Shown: positions 2,049 to 41,761 of the stretch, one piece after another
Layout of the letters: each line of letters begins with the position of its first letter
Numbering within the stretch: position 1 is the first letter of the stretch
IMG/VR virus record: IMGVR_UViG_3300027819_000007
Span: 19,787 to 83,786 of that record
From: a virus
Taxonomy: Duplodnaviria; Heunggongvirae; Uroviricota; Caudoviricetes
Length of the DNA: 64,000 nt
Direction: 5' to 3' (one strand)
The notes under the pieces: model-generated
Told to the model about the DNA's origin: nothing
Databases searched by the model: none
Seen by the model: the letters and a program-made list of their open reading frames with translations, nothing else
Position numbers and translations under genes: made by a program

Positions 2049-2447
2049 GAACTCATTCAACCTTCACATTTCCATCCTACATCACAATTCATTCCAACGG
2101 GTCACTTCTATCAGGTATTTCACTTCATTCTTAACCTACGGTTCCATCGCGGTACACAATTCATTCAGAAGTAACAATTCCATCTGATGTTTGAACTCAT
2201 TATCATTTGTCATTTCCATCAACGAATTCAACTCCTTCTATAGAGACAATTCCATCATTCTTGACAAGTTGAAAAGGAGAGCAGAAGTTGTTCCCCATCC
2301 TTGCTCCTGCTCTCCCAACCGTTGCAATCCATTTCATTTTCCTCTGTCAGTTCCATCACAATTTACAATTCATTCGCCTTCGTCACTTCCATCAAAATTC
2401 TCAATTCATTCTTGGGAGTCACTTCCATCCAAAACCTCAACACACTT
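2049..2447 (-). repeat. TIGR-like array 4, two sub-arrays (2049-2256 and 2330-2447) split by a hairpin insert; directly downstream of the tas-like gene
   Basis: 12 half-units at exact 18-nt steps from 2049 to 2247, then 7 from 2330 to 2438. Confidence 0.9.
2276..2315 (-). terminator. Hairpin inside array 4 (terminator or processing stem)
   Basis: GGAGAGCAG (2276-2284) pairs with CTGCTCTCC (2307-2315); TTTT follows on the minus strand. The loop is large (22 nt). Confidence 0.45.
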
Positions 2448-3675
2448 TCCCTTCCTTCACCAGATTGAAAAAGGGTGGGCTTATGTAACCCGTGTGACCT
2501 CCGTGAGCCATGATGTAAGGAACCACTTCCGGAAGACCCAACAGATGTCTTCCGACAGTGTGCCAATGCGAAAAGAATATCTTGACAGCGTATCGAATGG
2601 CTCTACGGTCCAACCCCACATCCTGCAACTTGCCACTCTCCCAACATGCTTTCTGCTCAGGGCTAATCTTCGCTCTCCGTTGGAGACATTCCTCCAACAA
2701 CTCCTTGGCGGCAAACCGAAGTTTACCCGTGTTGTTCATCTCCGTCTCCAAGACTTTTCGTTGCTGGTACAGTCGGACGTACAAGCCACCCTCTCCACTA
2801 ATGGAAACCAGGTCATCCTGAATGGACTTCTTCTCCACAGGAATTCTCGTTTCCACCTGCTCGTCCGTCAACACTTTCTTGGAACGGGACTTGATGTAAT
2901 TACGGAAGTCATCGTCAGTCACCAAGGCAAGTCGTTCCTTACCCACGGTGGAACGTTTCCAGCAGCAACCCATTCTGTACCACTGAACTTTGAGGCGAAG
3001 GTTGTAGGGGCGTCTCATACCCTTCTCCCAAATCAGTTCCTTTTTGGGGAGCAGTCCCGCAAACTTGTAGATACGTCCTGCCGTTCTCAGTCCCAAACAA
3101 TCATGAGGAGGAATCTCCTTTCGATCACCACCCTTGAGATGGATCCAATTGGGACAACAACATCTTTGAAGGTCGATGTGAGCCAGGAACGCTGCCGTAC
3201 AGATGGGACCGACTCCCAGATTCATCATAGCCCAACGTCCCAAAGGTTGGGACTTGGCAAACTCCTTGAGACCTCGTTCGGCCTGCCCTTCCACCTTCTC
3301 CAGTTCGTTCTTGAGTGACGTAATGAGAACAGGATCCGACAGAATGTCCACATTCCGTTCGTGAGCACTCTCACGGTTTCTGGCTCCCATTCTCACCTTC
3401 TGAATACTTTCGTACAACCCTACCAATGCCAGGGCTTGTTCCCGTGTATACTGCTGAGCAGACTGGACCACATCACGGGGGAGAGACTTGACAGCAAGGC
3501 TAATCACCTCCGTCACTTCCCCGTTCTCATCCCCCTTACAGGAACCATTCGTGTGGACGGGAGGTTGTTCCTTCTTGGGACGTCCCCTCTTTTTGGCAGG
3601 GGGGACAGCTTCACCATTCCGTTTAGAAATGATAGACTTGGCGATTTCTTTGGCAACTTCGCGGGACTCGGACAT
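2437..3675 (-). CDS. Nop-domain / IS110-C-terminal-like protein, TasA-like (no evident nuclease)
   Basis: GVGPICTAAFLAHID, TAGRIYKFAGLLP, RRPYNLRLK, LYVRLYQQRK and RAIRYAVKIFFSH blocks resemble the Nop/IS110 Tnp fold, preceded by a coiled coil. No DEDD RuvC N-terminus. Flanked by 36-nt dual-repeat arrays. Confidence 0.8.
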   Translation of the reverse strand: MSESREVAKEIAKSIISKRNGEAVPPAKKRGRPKKEQPPVHTNGSCKGDENGEVTEVISLAVKSLPRDVVQSAQQYTREQALALVGLYESIQKVRMGARNRESAHERNVDILSDPVLITSLKNELEKVEGQAERGLKEFAKSQPLGRWAMMNLGVGPICTAAFLAHIDLQRCCCPNWIHLKGGDRKEIPPHDCLGLRTAGRIYKFAGLLPKKELIWEKGMRRPYNLRLKVQWYRMGCCWKRSTVGKERLALVTDDDFRNYIKSRSKKVLTDEQVETRIPVEKKSIQDDLVSISGEGGLYVRLYQQRKVLETEMNNTGKLRFAAKELLEECLQRRAKISPEQKACWESGKLQDVGLDRRAIRYAVKIFFSHWHTVGRHLLGLPEVVPYIMAHGGHTGYISPPFFNLVKEGKVC

Positions 3676-3735
3676 GGGATTCTCCTTGTGTTGGGATTCA
3701 CCGTTCGTCTAAACTACCACTACAGTCAAGTATTA

Positions 3736-3962
3736 GAATTCATTCTTGGTTCGAAATTCATTCTCCACGTACAATTCATTCTCAGCATACGCTTCCTTCA
3801 CACTTCTCAATTCATTCGGACCGTTCATTTCCAACTGGCAGGATCAACTCATTCGTAGGCCACACTTCTATCAGATGATTCAACTCATTCCAAGGAAACA
3901 CTTTTATCGCGTGCTTCAATTCACTCGCAACCCACACTTCCATCAACGACCTCAACTCATCC
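3736..3962 (-). repeat. TIGR-like array 5 (upstream of the tas-like gene)
   Basis: Repeats at 3736, 3754, 3772, 3790, 3808, 3826, 3845, 3863, 3881, 3899, 3917, 3935, 3953. Confidence 0.9.
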
Positions 3963-4466
3963 AACATACTTGAACTCCTCTCCCACCAGTAGATCGATCC
4001 TGGCTTGGTTGTGGATCTGGTGGAAGACTTCCTCACGCAGACTTCCACCCTTTTCTCCCTCTTTGAGTTTGGAAGCCACCAGTCTCATGAAACGCTCCTT
4101 CATGGCATTTCCTTCCTTGAAGGAACGGTAACGGTCAGCTTCCTGGAGAATTTGTTCACGAGTAGCGTCTTTCAAGAATCCTCCCGTCATCATGGGCCAG
4201 TAGAGATAGGTGAAACACTTCTCCACCACCACAGCTTGTTGTTCTTTGGGGAATGTCTTGGGAGTGATTGGCTGGTTGGCAATCTTCACACGGGCTTGAC
4301 GTTGTACTTCTCGAAGGGCTTCCGAAGCAGCCCAATGAAGGGCTTCAGACAAGAGACTTTCATCATCCATGATCAGAGTGAGGAGTTCGGAAGTGGCCTC
4401 CTCGCTGTAACCATCGTAGTTCTTGTAACAGTCCGTAGCCACTTTCATCAACTGCTCGTGAGACAT
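3957..4466 (-). CDS. Hypothetical helical protein, candidate Tas accessory
   Basis: 169-aa ORF between arrays 5 and 6, with a CACAAGGAGA leader. Confidence 0.6.
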   Translation of the reverse strand: MSHEQLMKVATDCYKNYDGYSEEATSELLTLIMDDESLLSEALHWAASEALREVQRQARVKIANQPITPKTFPKEQQAVVVEKCFTYLYWPMMTGGFLKDATREQILQEADRYRSFKEGNAMKERFMRLVASKLKEGEKGGSLREEVFHQIHNQARIDLLVGEEFKYVG

Positions 4467-19782: not shown

Positions 19783-20097
19783 TCAGAACTCATTCATAAG
19801 ATCAAGTAACAATCGCCAAATCTGCTCGGTTACTCTTACTTTGGGAGAACGCAATTTCGTTAAAATTCTTTTGTCAGTGTACCCAGATTCTTCCAAAGCA
19901 TCTGCTAACATCTGCATGCCAGTTCTGGCATCTTCTTGGATTGAGGAATCGTCTCTCCGTAATCCCAACTCCCAAATTCTAGAAGCCAGATTACGAATGT
20001 TTTGATTGTCTTTACCAAACTTTCTTCTGTATTCGCGTTCCTCTTCAGAGGGGATTTTGGCTTTGTATTTTATCCTAAGCGACTTTATCTTGTCCAT
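19783..20097 (-). CDS. IKSLRxKY-family protein with LADALEESG motif
   Basis: Starts MDKIKSLRIKYKAK. Confidence 0.6.
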   Translation of the reverse strand: MDKIKSLRIKYKAKIPSEEEREYRRKFGKDNQNIRNLASRIWELGLRRDDSSIQEDARTGMQMLADALEESGYTDKRILTKLRSPKVRVTEQIWRLLLDLMNEF

Positions 20098-32645: not shown

Positions 32646-33131
32646 TCAAGTCTGGTTGGCTAAAAATTGTTCCGCTAACCTTGTACATTCCTGGTCACAC
32701 CACTGATTCCACTTACTCACGGGAAGGTTATTTCTCTTGCGATAACCTTGTTTTAGCTCAGCTTTTGTGGGATGTCCTCCTAGTAAAATTACCTTCCAGA
32801 ACTTGCCTGCCCTTAGTTCTAACACTTTATCCCGTATGAAGATAGGGACGTTGTTGAAACTATTACTTGTCGTAATCCTCCATAAGGTCACTTCACTGTC
32901 TATGTGAATAGTCCCATTCCACTCTGTGGGTAGAAAAGAAAGTCCCCTCATGGCTGCATACAGCTCACTCACGTTGTTGGATATTTTTTCCAGCCCTAAG
33001 TCGATTGGCTGGATTATCCCGCTATCCTGATGGATGATAGAGTTGTCTTCTACCAAGCACCATGCCCACGTCCCTCCATAAGGAGAAGGATTCTTTTGGA
33101 TTACGCCACCGTCCGTATAGAGTTCAGTCAT
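32646..33131 (-). CDS. rnhA: Ribonuclease H
   Basis: LYTDGG, NNVSELYAA, IHIDS, WNQWCD. Confidence 0.85.
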   Translation of the reverse strand: MTELYTDGGVIQKNPSPYGGTWAWCLVEDNSIIHQDSGIIQPIDLGLEKISNNVSELYAAMRGLSFLPTEWNGTIHIDSEVTLWRITTSNSFNNVPIFIRDKVLELRAGKFWKVILLGGHPTKAELKQGYRKRNNLPVSKWNQWCDQECTRLAEQFLANQT

Positions 33132-33133
33132 AG

Positions 33134-33391
33134 CTAACCCTCTATCTCTCTCGTTCCAATTTTTTCTATCTCATCCCATTTTTGCCAATTGATGAGAAAG
33201 GTAATGTGACAACTAGAACCTGGAGGACAAACCATGTCTGTTCGTTTACGGTCAAAGTGAATTCTCGCTATGAGAGAATAGCCACACTCACAAAATAAGT
33301 CATGGAGTTCGTCCAGTACATCCTCACCGTCAATATGTGCTTTGGCCAAGATGGTAAGGAGTTCTTTGTTTTTGGTAGTTATTTCAACCAC
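33134..33391 (-). CDS. Hypothetical protein (ELHDLFCECG motif)
   Basis: Probable GTG start at 33391 with a GGAGG SD; degenerate TIGR02996-like motif. Confidence 0.45.
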   Translation of the reverse strand: MVEITTKNKELLTILAKAHIDGEDVLDELHDLFCECGYSLIARIHFDRKRTDMVCPPGSSCHITFLINWQKWDEIEKIGTREIEG

Positions 33392-34104
33392 AACCGTATT
33401 CCTTCCTCCAAGGATTTCCAAGCATACTTCTCTTCTTTGAATCCTATAGCTACTTTTCCATAGGTGACCTGCTGTTTGGACCAAATATAGATGCCATAAT
33501 GACTGTGGATGTTTCCTTCTCCCATGCGGAAAAACAAGTCTTCTGGGAGAAGGTGTTCCCCTACGGGGTTGCAACTAACTACCCAACCACAATTCAAAAA
33601 ATCCGATGTTCTTTTCCTAAACCAGATGGTGGCTAGGAATGGTTCTCCATAGCAAGTTGAATTGATCCAATGGCGTTCATTTGATTTTGAAACGAACTGA
33701 TGAGTATAAGGTTTCCATCCACCTTCCACAATCTTGCGTTGCACAAAGGCTTCTTTCAAATCTCCCTGTTCTTCCAGCCAGTCAGAAAACACTAACCGCA
33801 AGTCCATGTCTGAGGGAGTAGCGTCAATACTTTCCCTCCAGTGGCTATCATGTTGCGAATGAGGATGATCTACTTCATACCCTTGTTGGAGGAGATGCTC
33901 CCGCATTTTGTCCCACACTACCTTTTCCACAAACCACACTTTCTTGGCAGGATACCAGCCACCTACGTTGCGGATTCTTGTGGTAAGTCGTAGTTCCGAC
34001 AACTTATCCTTGATGATGTTGATAAGGAGCTGGTCATAGTCAAACTTCAATGTGACCACGGGTTCACTATCAGGAAACAACTTGTCAATCCTTACTCGTA
34101 TCAT
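33379..34104 (-). CDS. HARP-like N-terminus plus TIGR02996-like domain
   Basis: WYPAKKVWFV, and DLRLVFSDWLEEQG. Confidence 0.6.
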   Translation of the reverse strand: MIRVRIDKLFPDSEPVVTLKFDYDQLLINIIKDKLSELRLTTRIRNVGGWYPAKKVWFVEKVVWDKMREHLLQQGYEVDHPHSQHDSHWRESIDATPSDMDLRLVFSDWLEEQGDLKEAFVQRKIVEGGWKPYTHQFVSKSNERHWINSTCYGEPFLATIWFRKRTSDFLNCGWVVSCNPVGEHLLPEDLFFRMGEGNIHSHYGIYIWSKQQVTYGKVAIGFKEEKYAWKSLEEGIRLWLK

Positions 34105-34979
34105 GTGAGAAAACTCCTTAGTTGGTTCAGTTCAGTTTCCGTGGCTTCTCCAGGGTCTTTACCACTTTCTAGAATTATGTTATGCGTAGTTCCTGGAAAC
34201 ATACTGAGGGATTGACATAACTTCCTGGCTCTACGTTGAGCTTCCTCCTCTGCGTCCAGACAAACCACTCTCACGGGGATAAGGGACAACTTACGAAGTT
34301 GCTCGGAAGAAGCTTTCATTCCCATCAGGGAAACTGCACCATAACCTACTTTGAAAACGTCCAATGGTCCTTCACATACTACCACGGCAAATCTAACATG
34401 ATCCTCTCCGAAGAGGAGTTGCTTGGGGGAGATTCTTTCTTCTTCTGGCTTAGCATTTAGATAACGAGGTTTGTTCCCACCAATTGTCCTCGTAGTCCAA
34501 CTCACCAATTCCTGTCGATAGTGAACCGGGATCCAAATCCTCCAACTTAGTCTGGAGGATATGCCAATCCCTTTCAAGCCCCACTTGGCCACTAACTCAA
34601 TGGGATCAAATCCTCTTTGAGATAGGTAGTCGTAGTGGCAGGGTTTAAGGTCTCCCACCTCAGGGGGAATTACTACCTTGGTTCGTTTAAGGTTCTTGTC
34701 GTCGGGAAGGGAGTAGTTACGGTCAGTTTGGTCCAGGAACCGTTTAACGACGAACCATGACTGTTGGGTAAGTAGTTGGAGAACTTGACCAATGGGATGT
34801 CCTCCACATTTCCAACAACTGCATTTCAAGGAGGAGAGATGAATGCCGAGATGAAATTTTCCTACTTCGCTACAGTATGGACAATCGGCACCAGCCCATC
34901 CGTGGGAAACGTGATGGTGAGTACCTCCCACACGGTATGGAACTCCATGTTCCTCTAAGAACGAAAGTAGAGAACTCAT
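34101..34979 (-). CDS. DNA primase (Zn finger + TOPRIM)
   Basis: CPYC...CSCWKC, VCEGPLD, CLDAEEEA, KDPGE. Confidence 0.85.
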   Translation of the reverse strand: MSSLLSFLEEHGVPYRVGGTHHHVSHGWAGADCPYCSEVGKFHLGIHLSSLKCSCWKCGGHPIGQVLQLLTQQSWFVVKRFLDQTDRNYSLPDDKNLKRTKVVIPPEVGDLKPCHYDYLSQRGFDPIELVAKWGLKGIGISSRLSWRIWIPVHYRQELVSWTTRTIGGNKPRYLNAKPEEERISPKQLLFGEDHVRFAVVVCEGPLDVFKVGYGAVSLMGMKASSEQLRKLSLIPVRVVCLDAEEEAQRRARKLCQSLSMFPGTTHNIILESGKDPGEATETELNQLRSFLT

Positions 34980-34997
34980 GGAGTTCCTTGCCCTTTC

Positions 34998-35192
34998 TTA
35001 GATCCTCCGAGTTTTATCTCTCATCAGTTTGATCACTTCTTGAGTCATGGTGGTGTTATTCCTTATGCACCAGATCTTGAACAGGTCTTTGAGTTGTCGA
35101 TCAATCTTTCTTATCAGGATAGCTGTTTCGTTTTTGTCTTTTTCTTTAATTACTTCAGTCATGGTTAGTCCCAATAGGGTATATTCGATCAC
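34998..35192 (-). CDS. Small ribbon-helix-helix-like protein
   Basis: ILIRKIDRQLKDLFKIWC...TMTQEVIKLM. Confidence 0.45.
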   Translation of the reverse strand: MIEYTLLGLTMTEVIKEKDKNETAILIRKIDRQLKDLFKIWCIRNNTTMTQEVIKLMRDKTRRI

Positions 35193-35394
35193 CGTTGTAC
35201 GAACTTTGGGAGATCTCCACTCCTGCTAAGGGATAGCAGGAGTTGCATACATAATGTTCTGGAAGGAGTCCCTTTCCCTCAGCAGTCCATATTTTTTGTA
35301 AGCACCTTACACAAGTGATGTGAACATGGCGTTGACCACAGATTTCCTTCACGGGGTAGAGTGAAGGTTTCTTTACAGTCTTCTTTCTTGCCAT
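35155..35394 (-). CDS. Small Zn-finger protein
   Basis: CVRC...CNSC. Confidence 0.45.
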   Translation of the reverse strand: MARKKTVKKPSLYPVKEICGQRHVHITCVRCLQKIWTAEGKGLLPEHYVCNSCYPLAGVEISQSSYNGDRIYPIGTNHD

Positions 35395-35412
35395 TGAAAG
35401 TGCTCCTTGGAA

Positions 35413-37899
35413 TTACGCAGGAAGTAGCCCTCCTGCAAGTAGTTGTTCACACAGCAAGTCATACACTTCCCAGGTTCCGTTGACTGCACCTCCATCTAAC
35501 ACTGCATCAGCAATTTGCTGCTTGGTTTGGTTCATTTCCAGTAGTCGTTCTTCAATAGTATCTTTCGCAATGAGATACCATGAGTTGATCCCATGAATGT
35601 CACTAAGCCGTGCATAGGCACGGTCTTCTGCTTGGATCATGTCGGCTGGTCGCCAAGCTAATTCCGCAAAGGCTACATCATGAGCAGCGGTAAGGTTTAA
35701 CCCTACCCCCGCAGCTTGCATTTGACCGATGCAAATCCTCTTCTTGGGGTTTGTTTGAAAGTCGTCTACTGCCTTCTGTCGATGTTTTCCTGTTATACCT
35801 CCATGAATAAGGACAGCGTGTTTCTTGAACTCCTGATGTAAGGGTTCCATCACATCGTGGTGCATAGCAAAGAGGAGTAACTTCCCTTCACTATTCTCCA
35901 GGTAAGAGTTAACCCACTCTATGATACAGGGGAGTTTAGCTAGTCCTGCAAGATGTTTCAGACGGAACAAACCTCCTTGCTTGTCCATCTTGGACATCTT
36001 ACCCTTCTTGAGGTCTTTGATGAAAGCCTTTAGCTCCGCATTGTACTCTTTTCGTGAAGGGAGGGCAAAAGGCACCACACATCGTTGCTTATCTGGAAGT
36101 TGATCGATGACGTCACACTTCCGATAACGGATCATGACGTTTTTGAGGAGTTGCTCATGGAGTTCTTCCAGGTTAGAGGTTCCTGTGAAGTCCCATCCCC
36201 ACTTGTTTCTATGACCATTGCAATACCTCAATCCAAACTTGAAGAAGTTGGGGTAGAGATCTGGACGGAGTAAGTTGAGGATTTGCCATAGCTCCATTGG
36301 TCTGTTGGCTAATGGAGTGCCAGACAGACACAGTACCGAAGGGGCATACTGACACAATTCTTTAACCGATACTGACCTTTTCGCTTTGCGGGAAGAGATA
36401 TACTGACAGTTAGAAACTAGAATCCTATCAGCAAAGAAATTGTGAGTGTGTTCTACTTCGATACAATAAACGAAAGTATCTCTTGTGCTATTGCAGATAC
36501 TTCCTTGTCTATCCTCTGGTTGGAGAATCTCAACACTTTCCACTGTAGATGGTTTTCCAGGAACTCTTGTTTCTTCTTGTCCTTTTCTCTGGCTCTTTTT
36601 ACTCTGTGTCCTCTTCCGTCGATTTCTATTGCTATTTTCTTCTCGCGATTCCCCACATCCACTTTGTAATTTGTTGGATATCCAGATCCTCTTTTCATTA
36701 AGGTCGCTATTGGTAACTCCTTCTCCCACCCATCCATCCAACAACACAATTCCCCCCACAGAGATTCCTGCTGGGAAGTATACTTCCCGTTCCCACCACG
36801 TTCTCCTTTCCAAATATGTAGCGTCCCATTCTTCCTTCTGGTATTCTTCATCTTTTCGACCACTTCTGGTCTTGATCCTGGATTGTTTTCCGACATTCTC
36901 TTGCTGGTTTTTCTTCTTTGTTCCACCCATGCTGGAGTATTCCGATATGCTGTGATTGTTTGTTTGAGTTGTTCCAACCTCTCTTTGGTGAATCTTTTTT
37001 TGAAATCTGGTTGTTTGACATGCCATCTTGTAACGCAAGCCCGACTGCAAAAGATCCTTTTTTTCTTTCCTTTGGAAAGGTAAAGAGAAACGAAGAACAC
37101 CTTCTGGCAATTTTGACATTCTATTCCTACTTTTTCTTTCTTTGGCCCTCTGTTTCCTATATTGGTACAAGGTACTGAACAGTATTTCCTGGTTTTCACT
37201 GATGGAAGAAAACTCTTTTTGCACGTCAGACAAATCTTGTAACTGGTCACCAATTCGGAGGTTGATTGCTTCAACATATCCTCGATTCCTCGTCCATATT
37301 TTGTGATTTTCTGTACAGTGAAGAACCCCCTTTCTGTGCTTCACTACCACCATTTTAGTATTTCTTCTGATTTTGAAATAGTTCTTGATTGGTGATAAAA
37401 CGAATTGGTGATTTGCAATATCGTAACTAGCAACCTTTGTTGCTATCTTCTCCTCTACTATTTTCCCAATCGGGATCATTCCATGTTCTGTTTGGACCAT
37501 TGTTTCGTATGGGAAGCATTCATCAACTATGACCAGTTGTGGATTGATGGACTTGAGATAGTTGAGCCATCCTTCCCCTGCAAAACCTTCTCGTTGGATG
37601 AGGATGTCGTAGTTGACAATAGTGACGATAGGAACTTCCCCCTCATGGGGGAAGGGGGTAGTTCCATCTAAGATTCTTGCATCCCAATCGAAGTGGAGTT
37701 TACATTCCCGCTTCCACTGCTCTTTAATGGAAGCGGGACACACTACCACGATGGGACACAGGTGGGGGTTGCGATAAGCATAGAGAAGGGAAGAGGGCGT
37801 CTTGCCCAGGCCCATCTCAAACGACAGGAGAGCATTGCCACCGAACTCGTGAACTTTCCTCACGGAGTGTAGTTGGAACAGGTAGGGGATGAAGGTCAT
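35413..37899 (-). CDS. SNF2-family helicase containing an intein
   Basis: EMGLGKT, VIVDE|C, LSGTPLAN, QAAGVGLNLTAA, QAEDRA. Confidence 0.9.
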   Translation of the reverse strand: MTFIPYLFQLHSVRKVHEFGGNALLSFEMGLGKTPSSLLYAYRNPHLCPIVVVCPASIKEQWKRECKLHFDWDARILDGTTPFPHEGEVPIVTIVNYDILIQREGFAGEGWLNYLKSINPQLVIVDECFPYETMVQTEHGMIPIGKIVEEKIATKVASYDIANHQFVLSPIKNYFKIRRNTKMVVVKHRKGVLHCTENHKIWTRNRGYVEAINLRIGDQLQDLSDVQKEFSSISENQEILFSTLYQYRKQRAKERKSRNRMSKLPEGVLRFSLPFQRKEKKDLLQSGLRYKMACQTTRFQKKIHQREVGTTQTNNHSISEYSSMGGTKKKNQQENVGKQSRIKTRSGRKDEEYQKEEWDATYLERRTWWEREVYFPAGISVGGIVLLDGWVGEGVTNSDLNEKRIWISNKLQSGCGESREENSNRNRRKRTQSKKSQRKGQEETRVPGKPSTVESVEILQPEDRQGSICNSTRDTFVYCIEVEHTHNFFADRILVSNCQYISSRKAKRSVSVKELCQYAPSVLCLSGTPLANRPMELWQILNLLRPDLYPNFFKFGLRYCNGHRNKWGWDFTGTSNLEELHEQLLKNVMIRYRKCDVIDQLPDKQRCVVPFALPSRKEYNAELKAFIKDLKKGKMSKMDKQGGLFRLKHLAGLAKLPCIIEWVNSYLENSEGKLLLFAMHHDVMEPLHQEFKKHAVLIHGGITGKHRQKAVDDFQTNPKKRICIGQMQAAGVGLNLTAAHDVAFAELAWRPADMIQAEDRAYARLSDIHGINSWYLIAKDTIEERLLEMNQTKQQIADAVLDGGAVNGTWEVYDLLCEQLLAGGLLPA
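36409..37518 (-). mobile_element. Intein (370 aa) inserted in Walker B of SNF2
   Basis: Starts CFPYET; block B CTENHKIW; ends VYCIEVEHTHNFFADRILVSN, followed by a +1 Cys. Confidence 0.9.
36453..37277 (-). CDS. Zn-finger / NUMOD-like / DUF559 (Vsr-like) endonuclease nested out of frame in the intein
   Basis: CLTC...YCSVPC and CQNC...FCSRAC fingers; YKVD...IAIEIDGRGH...KD...WKVLRFSN; GAGGA SD upstream of ATG 37277. Confidence 0.8.
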   Translation of the reverse strand: MLKQSTSELVTSYKICLTCKKSFLPSVKTRKYCSVPCTNIGNRGPKKEKVGIECQNCQKVFFVSLYLSKGKKKRIFCSRACVTRWHVKQPDFKKRFTKERLEQLKQTITAYRNTPAWVEQRRKTSKRMSENNPGSRPEVVEKMKNTRRKNGTLHIWKGERGGNGKYTSQQESLWGELCCWMDGWEKELPIATLMKRGSGYPTNYKVDVGNREKKIAIEIDGRGHRVKRAREKDKKKQEFLENHLQWKVLRFSNQRIDKEVSAIAQEILSFIVSK

Positions 37900-38423
37900 C
37901 GGTTAAGTGCCTCCCGTATTTCCCACCACAAGTCCAGCACTCTTTGTCCGGCCCAGCCTCTTCCCACAAGGTGTCGGGCTAGTCCTTCACGGGACCGGAG
38001 GTGGGGAACTGCTCCAGCGTCCAGAACCAACTTCACAGCATTCTGGGCATCCTCACTTAGTTGTTCCAGGAAGTTCTGCAAGTTGAACTCGCGATACGAA
38101 TCGGGTAATGTCCCTTCTTCATTGTCTTCACAGGGGAGCCTCTCCTGTCGTTGCCAGTCCCTCATCCTCGACTGGAGGAGCATATTCCAGACGATGTAGG
38201 TGACTCTCTTCTCCACCTTGCCTTTTGAAGGGTTGAATGTCTGCAGTGCTTTGACGTAGTGAGGGTATGCCTCACTCAAGATCTCACAGAACTCTCCGCC
38301 ATACTTTTTGCGGAAAGTATGGCAGACCTTGTAGACCAGTCTCTCAAACTTCTCCCATTGCTCCTCTGGTCTGGGGCTGGGGAGAGTTGCTTCACTTTTG
38401 TTGGAGGTAGGGGCAGTGGTCAT
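37896..38423 (-). CDS. Sigma70 region-2-like protein
   Basis: FERLVYKVC...EAY..YVKALQTFNPSKG...YIVWN. Confidence 0.6.
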   Translation of the reverse strand: MTTAPTSNKSEATLPSPRPEEQWEKFERLVYKVCHTFRKKYGGEFCEILSEAYPHYVKALQTFNPSKGKVEKRVTYIVWNMLLQSRMRDWQRQERLPCEDNEEGTLPDSYREFNLQNFLEQLSEDAQNAVKLVLDAGAVPHLRSREGLARHLVGRGWAGQRVLDLWWEIREALNR

Positions 38424-38701
38424 GGGTAATCTCCTTTGTGTGTTGGTGGTGGTAGATAGTAGTGGACCTTAGTCCTGTTCTGAGTTCACCTCTCTGTTGT
38501 TCCGGTTCCATTCCTCTTCATGGTGGTTACTCAACAGTTGTATACTATAGTTGTTGCTTCCCTCCTTTCTAAAGGTTGGTTTAGCGTCCGTTTTAAGCCC
38601 CATAGCATCGTCTAGGTCGCGTCCGGAGCCTTTTCTTGTAGTACGGGGCTAGGAATAGGCTCGGCAACGATGTGGAACAGGATTCTTGTAATCCATAAGG
38701 T

Positions 38702-39037
38702 CTAGAGCCATGGGCCATTCTCCGGTTCTCGTAAGGGCATTTCCCCGGTAGCCAGGTAGTATAGTGACAACTGTCGTGCTCGGTACAGACCGAAGATGTA
38801 ATCTTCTAAGTGGTTGAGATGGCTGTCGTTGTAGTAAGCCATGCACAGTGGTGCAGAACCATAGTCCCCATCTCCAATTCCATGTCGTGCCGTGGGGGAC
38901 CAGCCGCCATCGGCTTCACTGGTCTTGACGAGCCAGTAGTCATAGATCATCTTGCTCCTGGGATTTCTCTCTGTCCCCAGGTAGACGTATCTTTCCTCAT
39001 CATGTTCCCATTCGGGATAGGGGTAGTGTGGATGCAT
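38702..39037 (-). CDS. Hypothetical early protein
   Basis: ORF in the early operon. Confidence 0.5.
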   Translation of the reverse strand: MHPHYPYPEWEHDEERYVYLGTERNPRSKMIYDYWLVKTSEADGGWSPTARHGIGDGDYGSAPLCMAYYNDSHLNHLEDYIFGLYRARQLSLYYLATGEMPLREPENGPWL

Positions 39038-39039
39038 TC

Positions 39040-39474
39040 CTACACCTCCCTCATGTACTTGGTGGGCTTGGAGACATGGACCAACGTGAATACCTTCAAC
39101 ACATCCTCACTGTTGAACACCACTCGCTCCACCTGCTGCACTTGCTGTGTGTGCCGTAAGTAGATGTTGGTGGTGTGCATGATGTGAGGAAGTCCTTCCT
39201 TTAAGGCTTCGTGTTGCTTCTGGGAAGCGTACACCAAGTAACATGCCTTGGCATGATCACATACCCTTCTCACTCTTCTTCCCCCACGGGGACCGAAAGA
39301 GGTATTCTTGCACTTCTCAGTGTGTGGGATAGGAGTGTTAACTCCCCCACCCTGCACCTTGACCTCGTCAGTCAAGGCAAGCAGTAAGTCTGGTTCGATG
39401 TCCTTGAGAAGGACACCACGCCTTTTCTGGGCAAGTTCCTTCATCCTCTCCTTCGTTGCTTCAGTCCAGGCCAT
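39040..39474 (-). CDS. Hypothetical early protein
   Basis: Has the CAACACAAGGAGA leader. Confidence 0.6.
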   Translation of the reverse strand: MAWTEATKERMKELAQKRRGVLLKDIEPDLLLALTDEVKVQGGGVNTPIPHTEKCKNTSFGPRGGRRVRRVCDHAKACYLVYASQKQHEALKEGLPHIMHTTNIYLRHTQQVQQVERVVFNSEDVLKVFTLVHVSKPTKYMREV

Positions 39475-39530
39475 TGTCTTCTCCTTGTGTTGGGGTTGTG
39501 GAAGGTTACTACGCCACAGGTTGACACTGA

Positions 39531-40190
39531 TCAGTCATTGATGATGAGCAAACATGAGGACCATGCTCCTTCAAGGCGGTAGTACACTCCCCCAATGTCT
39601 TCCCCGTCGGTATCCGTCTCGGCCTGGTGGAATGTGTAAGTAACTCCTTCCAGGGTAGTCCGCAAAGTGCGTGGCCAGCCGGGGAGTTGAAGGGTACTCA
39701 TTTCCTGGGTAAACAGCCCCGGAGTGTTAGTAGACTTCTCGAACAGGCTCCCGTCCACATCGTCCTTTGGCTTACGGATCACCACTTCTTCGATGTAGTC
39801 CAGAACCACCTTGGGGGCAGGAGCGTTTTCACTACCCGTGATGGTGTCGATGAGCATCTTGACCAAGGTACTACTCCGGGGATCGCTAACGTCAACCCGT
39901 TTGCCCTTGCCGTTGTAGGTGCCGTGCCGGAAGAAGAGGATTTTCTTCCCGTCGTCAAACACACCTGTGATGGTAACTTGCTTGCGTACCATACTGGACC
40001 GCCTCATGGAATCTAAGGCGTCCTGGCACTGCTCCAACATCTCATACAACAGATGGCTGTCAACACTGCGGTTCCAGTGTCTGTTGATATTACCCAGCCC
40101 ATCCCGGCTGATGGTAACACTGGTGGTTTTGTGGTCCTTGTCTCCGTTCCAGTCTTCTTGGGCTTGGGTCAGTGCGATGGTAACTTTCAT
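39531..40190 (-). CDS. Hypothetical early protein
   Basis: Leader at 40198-40210 and a promoter upstream. Confidence 0.6.
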   Translation of the reverse strand: MKVTIALTQAQEDWNGDKDHKTTSVTISRDGLGNINRHWNRSVDSHLLYEMLEQCQDALDSMRRSSMVRKQVTITGVFDDGKKILFFRHGTYNGKGKRVDVSDPRSSTLVKMLIDTITGSENAPAPKVVLDYIEEVVIRKPKDDVDGSLFEKSTNTPGLFTQEMSTLQLPGWPRTLRTTLEGVTYTFHQAETDTDGEDIGGVYYRLEGAWSSCLLIIND

Positions 40191-40243
40191 CTTTGCGTCT
40201 CCTTGTGTTGAAGGCAAATTCTAGTAATCTTCCCCACAATTGA

Positions 40244-40272
40244 AGTATAACTCAGGTTAACTGGTTTGTCAA
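40244..40272 (-). promoter_or_regulatory. Sigma70-like early promoter
   Basis: TTGACA-AACCAGTTAACCTGAGT-TATACT (17-nt spacer). Confidence 0.75.
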
Positions 40273-40280
40273 ATGGATTT

Positions 40281-40598
40281 TCACATTTTCTTGGTTTCTT
40301 CGACCTCGGCTGAGGGAAGGTCTTCGTAGAAAGACATGGGGATATCCACGATGAGGTGCTTACACGTTGCCAACACGTCCAAATCCTTGAAGATAGCTAC
40401 CACACACCGCTTGTGAAGTTCACATTCTACCCCGACACGGTAATGGTGATCCATCTCAAACACCACGGGAAAATTGAAGTCAGGAAGTGCTCCAACATAC
40501 TCTTGGCTCAGTTGACGGTTGAAATTCCATCCATCATCGTGTGCTTTGGTTGCACATTGGATGAGGAGCGCCTTCGTGAAATACTTGACTGTCTTCAT
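40281..40598 (-). CDS. Hypothetical protein
   Basis: ORF track. Confidence 0.5.
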   Translation of the reverse strand: MKTVKYFTKALLIQCATKAHDDGWNFNRQLSQEYVGALPDFNFPVVFEMDHHYRVGVECELHKRCVVAIFKDLDVLATCKHLIVDIPMSFYEDLPSAEVEETKKM

Positions 40599-40628
40599 AG
40601 TTGGGTTCCTTTCTGGTTGAAGTAGTGG

Positions 40629-40856
40629 TTAGTTGTCCTTGGTGGACATTCTTATTCTGAAATAGTCTAGGAAGAACTCTCCGTGGGGAATACGATTGAG
40701 ACGGAACAGTTCTTCCATCCAGGGGTAAATCTGCTCCCGTGGGTACTTGTCAACGTCTTGCCATTCTTTGTAGCCACCTTCGCCACTGGTGATAAGGGCC
40801 ACGGAAAGGGCAAAGTCTTCAGGGATGTCATTGGGAACTAAAACTTGGATGTTCAT
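40629..40856 (-). CDS. Hypothetical protein
   Basis: Start MNIQV follows the leader motif. Confidence 0.5.
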   Translation of the reverse strand: MNIQVLVPNDIPEDFALSVALITSGEGGYKEWQDVDKYPREQIYPWMEELFRLNRIPHGEFFLDYFRIRMSTKDN

Positions 40857-40876
40857 AGGTCTCCTTGTGTTGAGGG

Positions 40877-41761
40877 TTACAGGTTTGGAAATTCTCTCAC
40901 TTGCAGGTCGATAGGAAATTCGGTGATGTCCCCTCCTTTTGCATCTTCCAGAGTCCATTCACTTTCATCGTTGATCATAGCCACCGATCCAAATTGCTTG
41001 TTGAAGAAAGCACACTTGGCATCCTGACATTGATACATGATACTCCACACCCAATCCAGGTAGATCGGTCGAGCGTTGCCTCCACTTTCTCCACCGGAAA
41101 TGAGCCACTGAATTCCTTGGAGGGTGTTGCCGAAGTCAATGGGACCGAGGAGTGGCTCTGCACTTACGAACAGAACTGGAACCTGGATAACCTCTCTTAC
41201 TTCTTGGAGGGCATCTACTCTCCAGGTATATTCCTGGTTCTCAATAGAGGTTCCTAGCCATACGTTCTTCCACTCCCCATGTGACATCATGGAACAAATG
41301 TTCTCCGGCCTCTTGGTAAGCAGTTGCCAATCCAACCAGGGAGTCTCTCGGATCAAATCCCACAGTCGTTCTCTTGCATGATGAAGAGTTAATTCCTCAT
41401 CATGAGCATCATCTTGGACAGAACTGATCTCATTTGTTAATGGATTGATCCACAATCTATTCTCCTGAGAGTCCATCATCTGACCACTCCATGATTCAAA
41501 TACGTCAGCTAGGGATGCGCAGAATACCTTGTGACGTTTCTGGTTTCTTTGAGCTTGAGCATTCCATTTGTAGGGTTCGTTCCATTGGTTGTCAGAAGCC
41601 AAGACACGAGTCCCTTCCGGTCCCCACTCTCCCAGCACTTTAGGATTTCGTTTGGACAGAGTGAGAGCATAACAGTTAGCACACCCTGGAGAAATCTTGG
41701 TACATCCCCTCCACGGGTTGAAGGTGCTGTCTGTCCATTGAATTTTGGTTTTGGTAGCCAT
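40877..41761 (-). CDS. Gp37Gp68 / DUF5131 family radical-SAM-like protein
   Basis: IQWTDSTFNPWRGCTKISPGCANCYA, WQLLTKRP, VSAEPLLG, GGESG. Confidence 0.9.
   Translation of the reverse strand: MATKTKIQWTDSTFNPWRGCTKISPGCANCYALTLSKRNPKVLGEWGPEGTRVLASDNQWNEPYKWNAQAQRNQKRHKVFCASLADVFESWSGQMMDSQENRLWINPLTNEISSVQDDAHDEELTLHHARERLWDLIRETPWLDWQLLTKRPENICSMMSHGEWKNVWLGTSIENQEYTWRVDALQEVREVIQVPVLFVSAEPLLGPIDFGNTLQGIQWLISGGESGGNARPIYLDWVWSIMYQCQDAKCAFFNKQFGSVAMINDESEWTLEDAKGGDITEFPIDLQVREFPNL

Follow-up and report, generated by a model that had tools for sequence, protein, structure and literature searches.

This analysis concerns a SNF2-family helicase gene in a 64,000-nucleotide (nt) window, i.e. the whole stretch of DNA that was analysed, which covers positions 19,787 to 83,786 of the IMG/VR virus record IMGVR_UViG_3300027819_000007 (Caudoviricetes). 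The record comprises 163,635 bases and is rated 100 % complete. With a probability of roughly 85 %, the helicase of this phage carries a mini-intein at a DE/C site (a slash marks the splice junction here and below) whose linker is overprinted by a separately translated homing-endonuclease gene. An earlier note, made from the sequence alone, had placed the intein at 36409-37518 and the nested open reading frame (ORF) at 36453-37277. Both pairs of coordinates are exact, and both features lie on the minus strand, which had been left unstated. The reading is carried by a predicted splicing fold on either side of a linker modelled with low confidence, by a helicase frame that is kept free of stop codons, by the substitution pattern of the endonuclease frame, and by the recurrence of the layout in relatives.

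Intein and nested endonuclease

The helicase gene (P0001, 35413-37899; all features given here are on the minus strand) is a single uninterrupted ORF encoding an 828-amino-acid (aa) precursor including the intein, and not two ORFs with intein halves. It was delimited from the ORF list, the translation and Pfam, with matches to SNF2-rel_dom (1.8e-18) and Helicase_C (2.7e-12). Based on the translation and the homologue alignment, the N-extein of 127 aa (37519-37899) ends in the Walker-B motif ...VIVDE, and the C-extein (35413-36408), for which Pfam was used in addition, extends from CQYISSRKAK to the end of the helicase, stop included. The intein of 370 aa (36409-37518), placed by translation, alignment and Pfam, runs from Cys1 (TGC, 37518-37516) to Ser-Asn, with the terminal Asn encoded by AAC (36411-36409) and the +1 Cys following next. 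The junctions thus read ...VIVDE/CFPYETMV ... ADRILVSN/CQYISS..., directly after the Walker-B motif.

The claim that the splicing blocks are intact is borne out by the invariant first Cys, TxxH, Asn and +1 Cys and by a predicted HINT (Hedgehog/intein) fold. C128, T196, H199, N497 and C498 are invariant among nine aligned homologues, and the TxxH of block B, with T196 and H199, is present as C-T-E-N-H. The nucleophile of the upstream junction, Cys128, directly follows DE, and Asn497 and Cys498 stand at the downstream junction, as in class 1 inteins. In the AlphaFold2 (AF2) model, the N-terminal splicing domain with blocks A and B (CFPYETMV ... CTENHKIW, 37234-37518), which also has a match in the PDB, reaches a predicted local distance difference test score (pLDDT) of about 85-94 over residues 1-100. 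The C-terminal splicing domain (36409-36558), supported by alignments as well, comprises the strand TVESVEIL and blocks F and G ...VYCIEVEHTHNFFADRILVSN, and model residues 329-337 and 354-374 have a pLDDT of 80-87. The best PDB match of the intein model in a Foldseek search was the Npu DnaE intein 4kl5 (E=1e-6, root-mean-square deviation 1.8 Å over 100 columns), one of 58 matches at E<=1e-3 that are mainly inteins or other Hint-fold domains. Both intein halves are therefore predicted to have the HINT fold. Between them lies a linker of about 225 codons in the helicase frame (36559-37233), a charged and stop-free shadow sequence that was delimited by pLDDT, identity and stop avoidance. Its model residues, 101-325, have a pLDDT of 31-55 and no recognisable structure, in agreement with the earlier description of the central codons as non-domain-like.

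The nested ORF (36453-37277), identified from the ORF list, its family and the AF2 model, encodes a protein of 274 aa (P0002) followed by TAG and lies in the +1 frame relative to the helicase (gene offset 622). Its ATG falls within the intein-frame codons G-Y-V and its stop within IEVE of block F. The protein consists of two zinc ribbons of the form CxxC...CxxxC, a helical middle part and a C-terminal DUF559 domain. The first ribbon (C16, C19, C33 and C37; 37167-37232) is indicated by near-invariant Cys columns and a phrog_1271 match at aa 11-122, the second (C54, C57, C77 and C81; 37035-37118) by invariant Cys columns and weak matches to YacG and MYM-type zinc-finger profiles. Of the content proposed earlier, the zinc fingers stand as two conserved ribbons and the DUF559/Vsr-like nuclease stands as well. 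The NUMOD-like linker is not supported: Pfam gave no NUMOD match in this protein even at E<=10, and the two Cys4 ribbons are found there instead.

The nuclease domain (aa 181-274, 36456-36737) is supported by Pfam, PDB profiles, Foldseek and invariant residues. The Pfam DUF559 match covers aa 203-271 (E=7.6e-11, 42.3 bits against a cut-off of 20.6), and a PDB sequence profile search returned 3hrl (1e-11) and 3r3p (7e-4). The AF2 model, built from a 12-sequence alignment, has a mean pLDDT of 85.8, and its best solved match is the catalytic domain of I-Bth0305I (3r3p). Target-normalised template modelling scores from Foldseek were 0.67 for 3r3p, 0.70 for the DUF559 protein 3hrl and 0.53 for E. 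coli Vsr (1cw0), with modest E-values of 4e-3 to 0.7. D207, E218, D220, H224 and D233 are invariant in the family alignment. D233 aligns with D222 of I-Bth0305I, and H224 is one column off H213, which is an Ala in the crystal construct. The catalytic residues correspond to those mutated or discussed for I-Bth0305I (PMC3239194). The protein is therefore predicted, from sequence and model, to be a zinc-ribbon homing endonuclease with a DUF559/EDxHD (Vsr-like) nuclease domain, and 1458 library representatives match its family at E<=1e-3. A stretch of nine codons (36523-36549) is predicted as a beta-strand in both AF2 models, reading TVESVEILQ in the intein and WKVLRFSN in the endonuclease, and both motifs are conserved in homologues. 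The overlap thus extends into structured parts of both proteins.

A GAGGA ahead of the nested ATG, pointed out in the earlier note, is present at 37287-37291 (-14 to -10, i.e. 9 nt 5' of the ATG) and is likely a Shine-Dalgarno (SD) site. A second GAGGA at 37279-37283 (-6 to -2) is too near the ATG to serve. SD-like sites recur in the family: AGGA, GGAG or GAGG occurs at -16 to -5 of the equivalent ATG in 48/66 distinct relatives, compared to a background of 13 % per position. In these relatives the ATG sits just 5' of the first zinc knuckle, and many of the sites are strong, such as AAGGAGG. Internal initiation on the helicase mRNA would be the simplest explanation of these signals.

Stop codons and substitutions in the two frames

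As the earlier note had stated, both frames stay open. The helicase frame has no stop over the intein, whereas the third frame has 22; the nested frame is free of stops over the 825 nt of the nested ORF but has eight in the rest of the intein. A helicase-frame stop requires a nested codon ending in T before a codon starting with AA, AG or GA. At these risky junctions T-ending nested codons are absent (0/102), compared to 48/172 (28 %) at the other junctions (P~3e-15). When the nested ORF was shuffled synonymously 20,000 times, the helicase frame acquired 13.5 stops on average and never fewer than 4. The proposal that the intein frame is kept stop-free also applies to the relatives, where 67 distinct nested sequences taken together have T at 0/5339 risky junctions and at 3125/10105 (31 %) elsewhere, with an average of 0.01 stops per locus in the host frame and 23 in the third frame. 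The double open frame exceeds chance.

The substitutions differ between the frames. When both are compared over one set of alignment columns, the endonuclease frame has a mean amino-acid identity of 38 % and the helicase frame one of 22 %. For positions 1, 2 and 3 of the endonuclease codons, the nucleotide identity amounts to 0.52, 0.56 and 0.38, and the wobble position of the endonuclease frame is thus the free one. Four independent close pairs of 75-95 % nucleotide identity show the same tendency, with 153, 127 and 270 differences at these three positions. Among the codons that changed in these pairs, synonymous changes account for 166/385 (43 %) in the endonuclease frame and for 43/395 (11 %) in the host frame. 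The islands NRNRW and RVESVEIL, which are conserved in the helicase-frame linker, are shadows of the endonuclease motifs IEIDG and WKVLRFS. Purifying selection acts on the endonuclease frame. The host-frame linker thus evolves as its shadow and is selected only against stop codons.

Relatives, proposed mechanism and competing explanations

The earlier note had suggested a search for similar inteins with an out-of-frame DUF559 gene, and the same layout was found in about 100 independent assemblies. Searching proteins with the intein region as the query returned 27 other intein-bearing proteins, mostly SNF2 helicases, of 25-37 % identity, most of which span the whole query including the linker. 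Eight aligned SNF2 helicases have the intein at the same DE/C site. The DNA of four SNF2 homologues (30-40 % identity) was examined from ENA and Logan assemblies. All four have a stop-free +1 frame of 262-310 codons encoding a homologue of the endonuclease, with the nested stop inside block F, 15-17 codons ahead of the terminal Asn of the intein. The nested ATG lies in the G-Y-V codons in the window and in two of the four.

Single-sequence pattern scans of IMG/VR found no endonuclease relative and only one distant intein-less helicase, whereas an alignment-based scan found 306 stretches encoding a relative. Eighty of these were kept for examining the layout, and in 79 of them the endonuclease is nested at +1 within one ORF of 650-1370 aa. 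The host ORFs are shorter where a contig end cuts them and reach at least about 180 aa to either side of the nested ORF wherever the contig allows. All 20 prokaryote-genome matches of at least half length are nested in the same way, including that of the isolate Longilinea arvoryzae KOME-1. The host gene is unbroken in 104 of the 105 relatives taken from DNA. Host families are clamp-loader or DnaX-like AAA+ proteins (58 loci), SNF2 helicases (23, including the window) and DExH/ResIII proteins (3), and the inteins examined directly follow the Walker-B DE, rarely DEAH. In a tree of 69 endonucleases, the sequences cluster by host family, with 5 label changes compared to about 20 in shuffles, and the endonuclease of the window clusters with those of two other SNF2 loci. 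The DExH endonucleases nest twice within clamp-loader groups with strong support. This points to host switches between clamp-loader and DExH genes.

Several relatives deviate from the common layout. In the clamp-loader gene of locus L066 (positions 2292-4436, UViG_3300007537_000440), one TAG (3255) interrupts the linker in the intein frame but leaves the nested ORF intact, and this is the sole broken host frame among the 80 IMG/VR relatives. The locus could represent the onset of gene fracturing, an allele that is dying out or an error in one base. In two JGI metagenome contigs, L089 (102-2110) and L090 (588-2893), with proteins P0098 and P0179, the N-extein, the N-terminal intein part and the endonuclease share one frame, and the C-terminal intein part and the C-extein follow as a second, overlapping ORF. 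One frame switch explains each, within the nested gene in L089 (about nt 1019) and at its start in L090 (about nt 1439), and each switch may be a genuine mutation or result from an indel error. The SNF2 helicase at L044 (966-4880), whose intein has a nested endonuclease, additionally matches Pfam HNH_3 at aa 388-430 and Intein_splicing in two stretches, which may indicate a second intein or an HNH insertion upstream. In L095, L099, L100, L101 and L102, the last being L. arvoryzae KOME-1 (NZ_DF967972.1:1093468-1100223), the endonuclease is nested in ORFs of about 1500-2100 aa, measured from stop to stop, to which no function could be assigned. These loci come from Anaerolineae genomes and a Methylococcaceae metagenome-assembled genome, and the element is thus not confined to phage replication genes.

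The proposed mechanism is a composite selfish element at the Walker-B site, consisting of a mini-intein and an endonuclease gene that is overprinted, on the same strand but in +1, on its linker of ~225 codons. Ribosomes in the helicase frame would produce a precursor in which a long charged loop, for which no structure is predicted, connects the two HINT halves, and the intein would fold and splice out to leave an intact helicase. Other ribosomes would start at the internal GAGGA-ATG and produce the 274-aa endonuclease as a separate protein. This endonuclease would cut intein-less helicase alleles in co-infecting phages, for example at a DESH-type site as in the intein-less relative L002, which has DESH at the point matching the insertion site. 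Recombinational repair would then copy the intein together with the endonuclease gene into the cut allele. We infer the translation of both frames, splicing with the linker in place, the cleavage target and the origin of the arrangement from the features described above. For the origin, the earlier note had proposed that a free-standing endonuclease invaded a mini-intein, and the data speak neither for nor against this. All loci have the same frame offset and nearly the same placement, which would be compatible with one rare event of origin and later spread.

Some observations weigh against this reading. The shuffles predict ~13 host-frame stops for an invading gene, and its stop-free arrival is left unexplained. 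The spacing of the GAGGA is usable but short of ideal. A minus-strand scan from the start of the intein to the nested ATG, whose scope did not include phage-specific promoters, found no sigma-70-like promoter, and expression of the endonuclease must therefore rely on the helicase transcript or on a promoter type outside the scan. The Pfam Intein_splicing match (32.9 bits, E=6.9e-8) falls under the gathering score of 35.8, the match being split by the long linker; several relatives exceed this score. The penultimate residue is Ser496 (VSN/C) instead of the usual His in all nine aligned SNF2-type inteins, whereas the clamp-loader relatives have VHN/C. A penultimate His in block G is usual in inteins, but not universal.

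The double frame could alternatively be an assembly artefact, in which two compensating indel errors displace an ordinary in-frame endonuclease domain of the intein. The origin of the sequence from a single metagenome-derived virus contig, A-runs in the region and the single frame switches of L089 and L090, which could be indels, are compatible with it. However, an artefact would not keep the helicase frame stop-free over 825 nt. Independent ENA, JGI, Logan, IMG/VR and GTDB assemblies show the same offset and the same boundaries at about 100 loci, with T at none of the 5339 risky junctions. Compensating indels, which the earlier note had named as the finding that would overturn its reading, are excluded by this recurrence, and together with the stop-free helicase frame it effectively refutes the artefact, which retains a negligible probability. 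Programmed ribosomal frameshifting could alternatively join the endonuclease to the intein and yield a canonical fusion from some of the ribosomes. Both frames are on one strand and one mRNA, and the single frame of N-extein, N-terminal intein part and endonuclease in L089 and L090 makes a fusion product at least possible. A spliceable intein would nevertheless need two shifts, +1 in and -1 out, while the nested frame starts at a conserved ATG of its own, preceded by an SD-like site, and in all relatives ends at a separate stop inside block F. A slippery heptamer was not apparent at the junction in the window, by inspection rather than by a systematic search. A frameshift fusion was rejected on the need for two shifts and on the nested frame's own ATG, SD-like site and stop, and is regarded as very improbable.

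The layout could also be an inherited relic. The nested endonuclease would then have stopped homing, being inactive or domesticated for another role, in an intein that can still splice or in a gene that is dead. Endonucleases decay after fixation in the homing-cycle model (Gogarten and Hilario 2006, PMC1654191). The host-frame stop of L066 and the frame switches of L089 and L090 show that decay does occur in the family. A close intein-less allele of the helicase gene was also not found, the nearest relative that lacks the intein being L002 with no more than 32 % identity. On the other hand, the endonuclease is full length with all catalytic and zinc-binding residues present, its frame is under purifying selection in the family, and the host switches between clamp-loader and DExH genes in the tree imply recent mobility. 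A relic is therefore considered unlikely, though less so than a frameshift fusion.

A wider proposal can be added to the reading as a mini-intein with an overprinted, separately translated endonuclease. The closest members of the endonuclease clade were never found free-standing or in frame, but always in +1 inside an intein. The zinc-ribbon/EDxHD clade may be obligately overprinted, with intein and endonuclease moving as a unit between the Walker-B (DE/xH) sites of unrelated P-loop ATPases (SNF2, clamp loader, DExH) in phages and cells. It may thus be among the commonest, so far unannotated, non-canonical intein classes and a contiguous alternative to the fractured gene as a result of endonuclease invasion. 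The chances of this proposal being right are considered to be about even.

Genomic setting and known systems

In this part of the window, the genes around the helicase are all on the minus strand. Ten flanking ORFs were scanned (32646-41761), nine of which had no Pfam match at E<=1e-3, the sole match being DUF5131 (1e-61) in the ORF at 40877-41761. The phage region around the helicase is thus essentially uncharacterised. The G+C content, ~0.39 within the intein and endonuclease region, rises between 37500 and 38100 and reaches 0.53-0.55 in the N-extein and the gene upstream of it. In composition the inserted element thus stands apart from the surrounding sequence, as a mobile element would be expected to do. 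One intein and one DUF559 gene (43.7 bits), and no further copies of either, were found when the 163.6-kb genome was searched. The whole gene had no match in phage GenBank DNA with blastn in distant mode.

It is true that inteins normally carry their endonuclease in frame, as the earlier note had said, but out-of-frame and antisense endonuclease genes in inteins have already been published, with Gorbalenya 1998 being credited in two preprints. In a survey of actinobacteriophages (bioRxiv 10.1101/2025.01.02.630785), inteins are described with LAGLIDADG or VSR-like genes on the antisense strand and with endonuclease VII-like genes in frame 3. As in the phage locus described here, the in-frame middle of these inteins lacks recognisable structure and the overlapping ORF is a homing endonuclease, which in one type is also Vsr-like/EDxHD and was matched to 3R3P. 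There, however, the Vsr-like gene is antisense and the same-strand type is endonuclease VII-like in 'frame 3', whereas the present gene is on the same strand, in +1, and combines zinc ribbons with DUF559. The hosts also differ, being DNA polymerase, capsid, terminase and thymidylate synthase in the survey and SNF2, clamp-loader and DExH ATPases in this family.

Another published arrangement is the cyanobacterial dnaX intein with an out-of-frame LAGLIDADG endonuclease (bioRxiv 10.64898/2026.09.14.751524), which that preprint credits Gorbalenya 1998 with having first proposed. It shares the same-strand overlapping ORF between the splicing domains, the disordered in-frame region, the SD site before the nested start, and purifying selection on the endonuclease frame with relaxed selection on the host frame. 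The present endonuclease, too, has most of its relatives in DnaX-like clamp-loader genes. The differences are the nuclease family (LAGLIDADG instead of EDxHD/DUF559), a stated frame of +2 instead of +1, and a cellular instead of a mostly phage origin.

The nuclease itself is related to two further systems. In fractured genes, split inteins are separated by a free-standing Vsr-like homing-endonuclease gene (Dassa et al. 2009, PMC2677866). The nuclease superfamily, the phage and metagenome origin, the position of the gene at the place of the endonuclease domain in the intein, and the overlap of its 3' end with the C-terminal intein part are shared. However, the host gene is split into two ORFs there and trans-splicing is needed, whereas the helicase frame of the window runs stop-free through a contiguous intein, an outcome that is absent from steps II, IIa and IIIa of the model of Dassa et al. 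I-Bth0305I is the prototype EDxHD homing endonuclease (Taylor et al. 2011, PMC3239194; PDB 3R3P). Its nuclease fold and catalytic residues align with those of P0002, and it has a similar length (266 compared to 274 aa), an N-terminal DNA-binding region and a C-terminal nuclease, but it is encoded by a group I intron and binds DNA by NUMOD and helix-turn-helix elements instead of being overprinted on an intein and carrying two zinc ribbons. The ShiLan insertion in a phage methylase (PMC11855218) is reported to be also in frame and stop-free with a 'hidden' endonuclease. This endonuclease is of the HNH type, and the insertion reportedly could not be identified as an intein.

In the literature searched, a same-strand, +1-frame zinc-ribbon/DUF559 (EDxHD) endonuclease in contiguous Walker-B-site inteins was not found. 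The general kind is already published, although only recently described, and the present layout is a variant of it and not a new kind. Its added value lies in the evidence that the layout is frequent, keeps strictly to one frame and has gone unannotated, and in that it adds a fourth endonuclease family and a new combination of frame and strand to the inteins with overlapping homing-endonuclease genes.

This has consequences for annotation, since gene callers report only the long host ORF. The nucleases therefore remain invisible, and their inteins are likely misread as decaying or 'mini'. For the evolution of overlapping genes, the family provides a clean natural case in which one frame is under purifying selection and the other is selected only against stops. 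If splicing holds true, HINT domains would tolerate an unstructured insert of roughly 225 residues, which bears on intein engineering. Finally, a single selfish element can apparently switch its target among different ATPases with a Walker-B motif in common.

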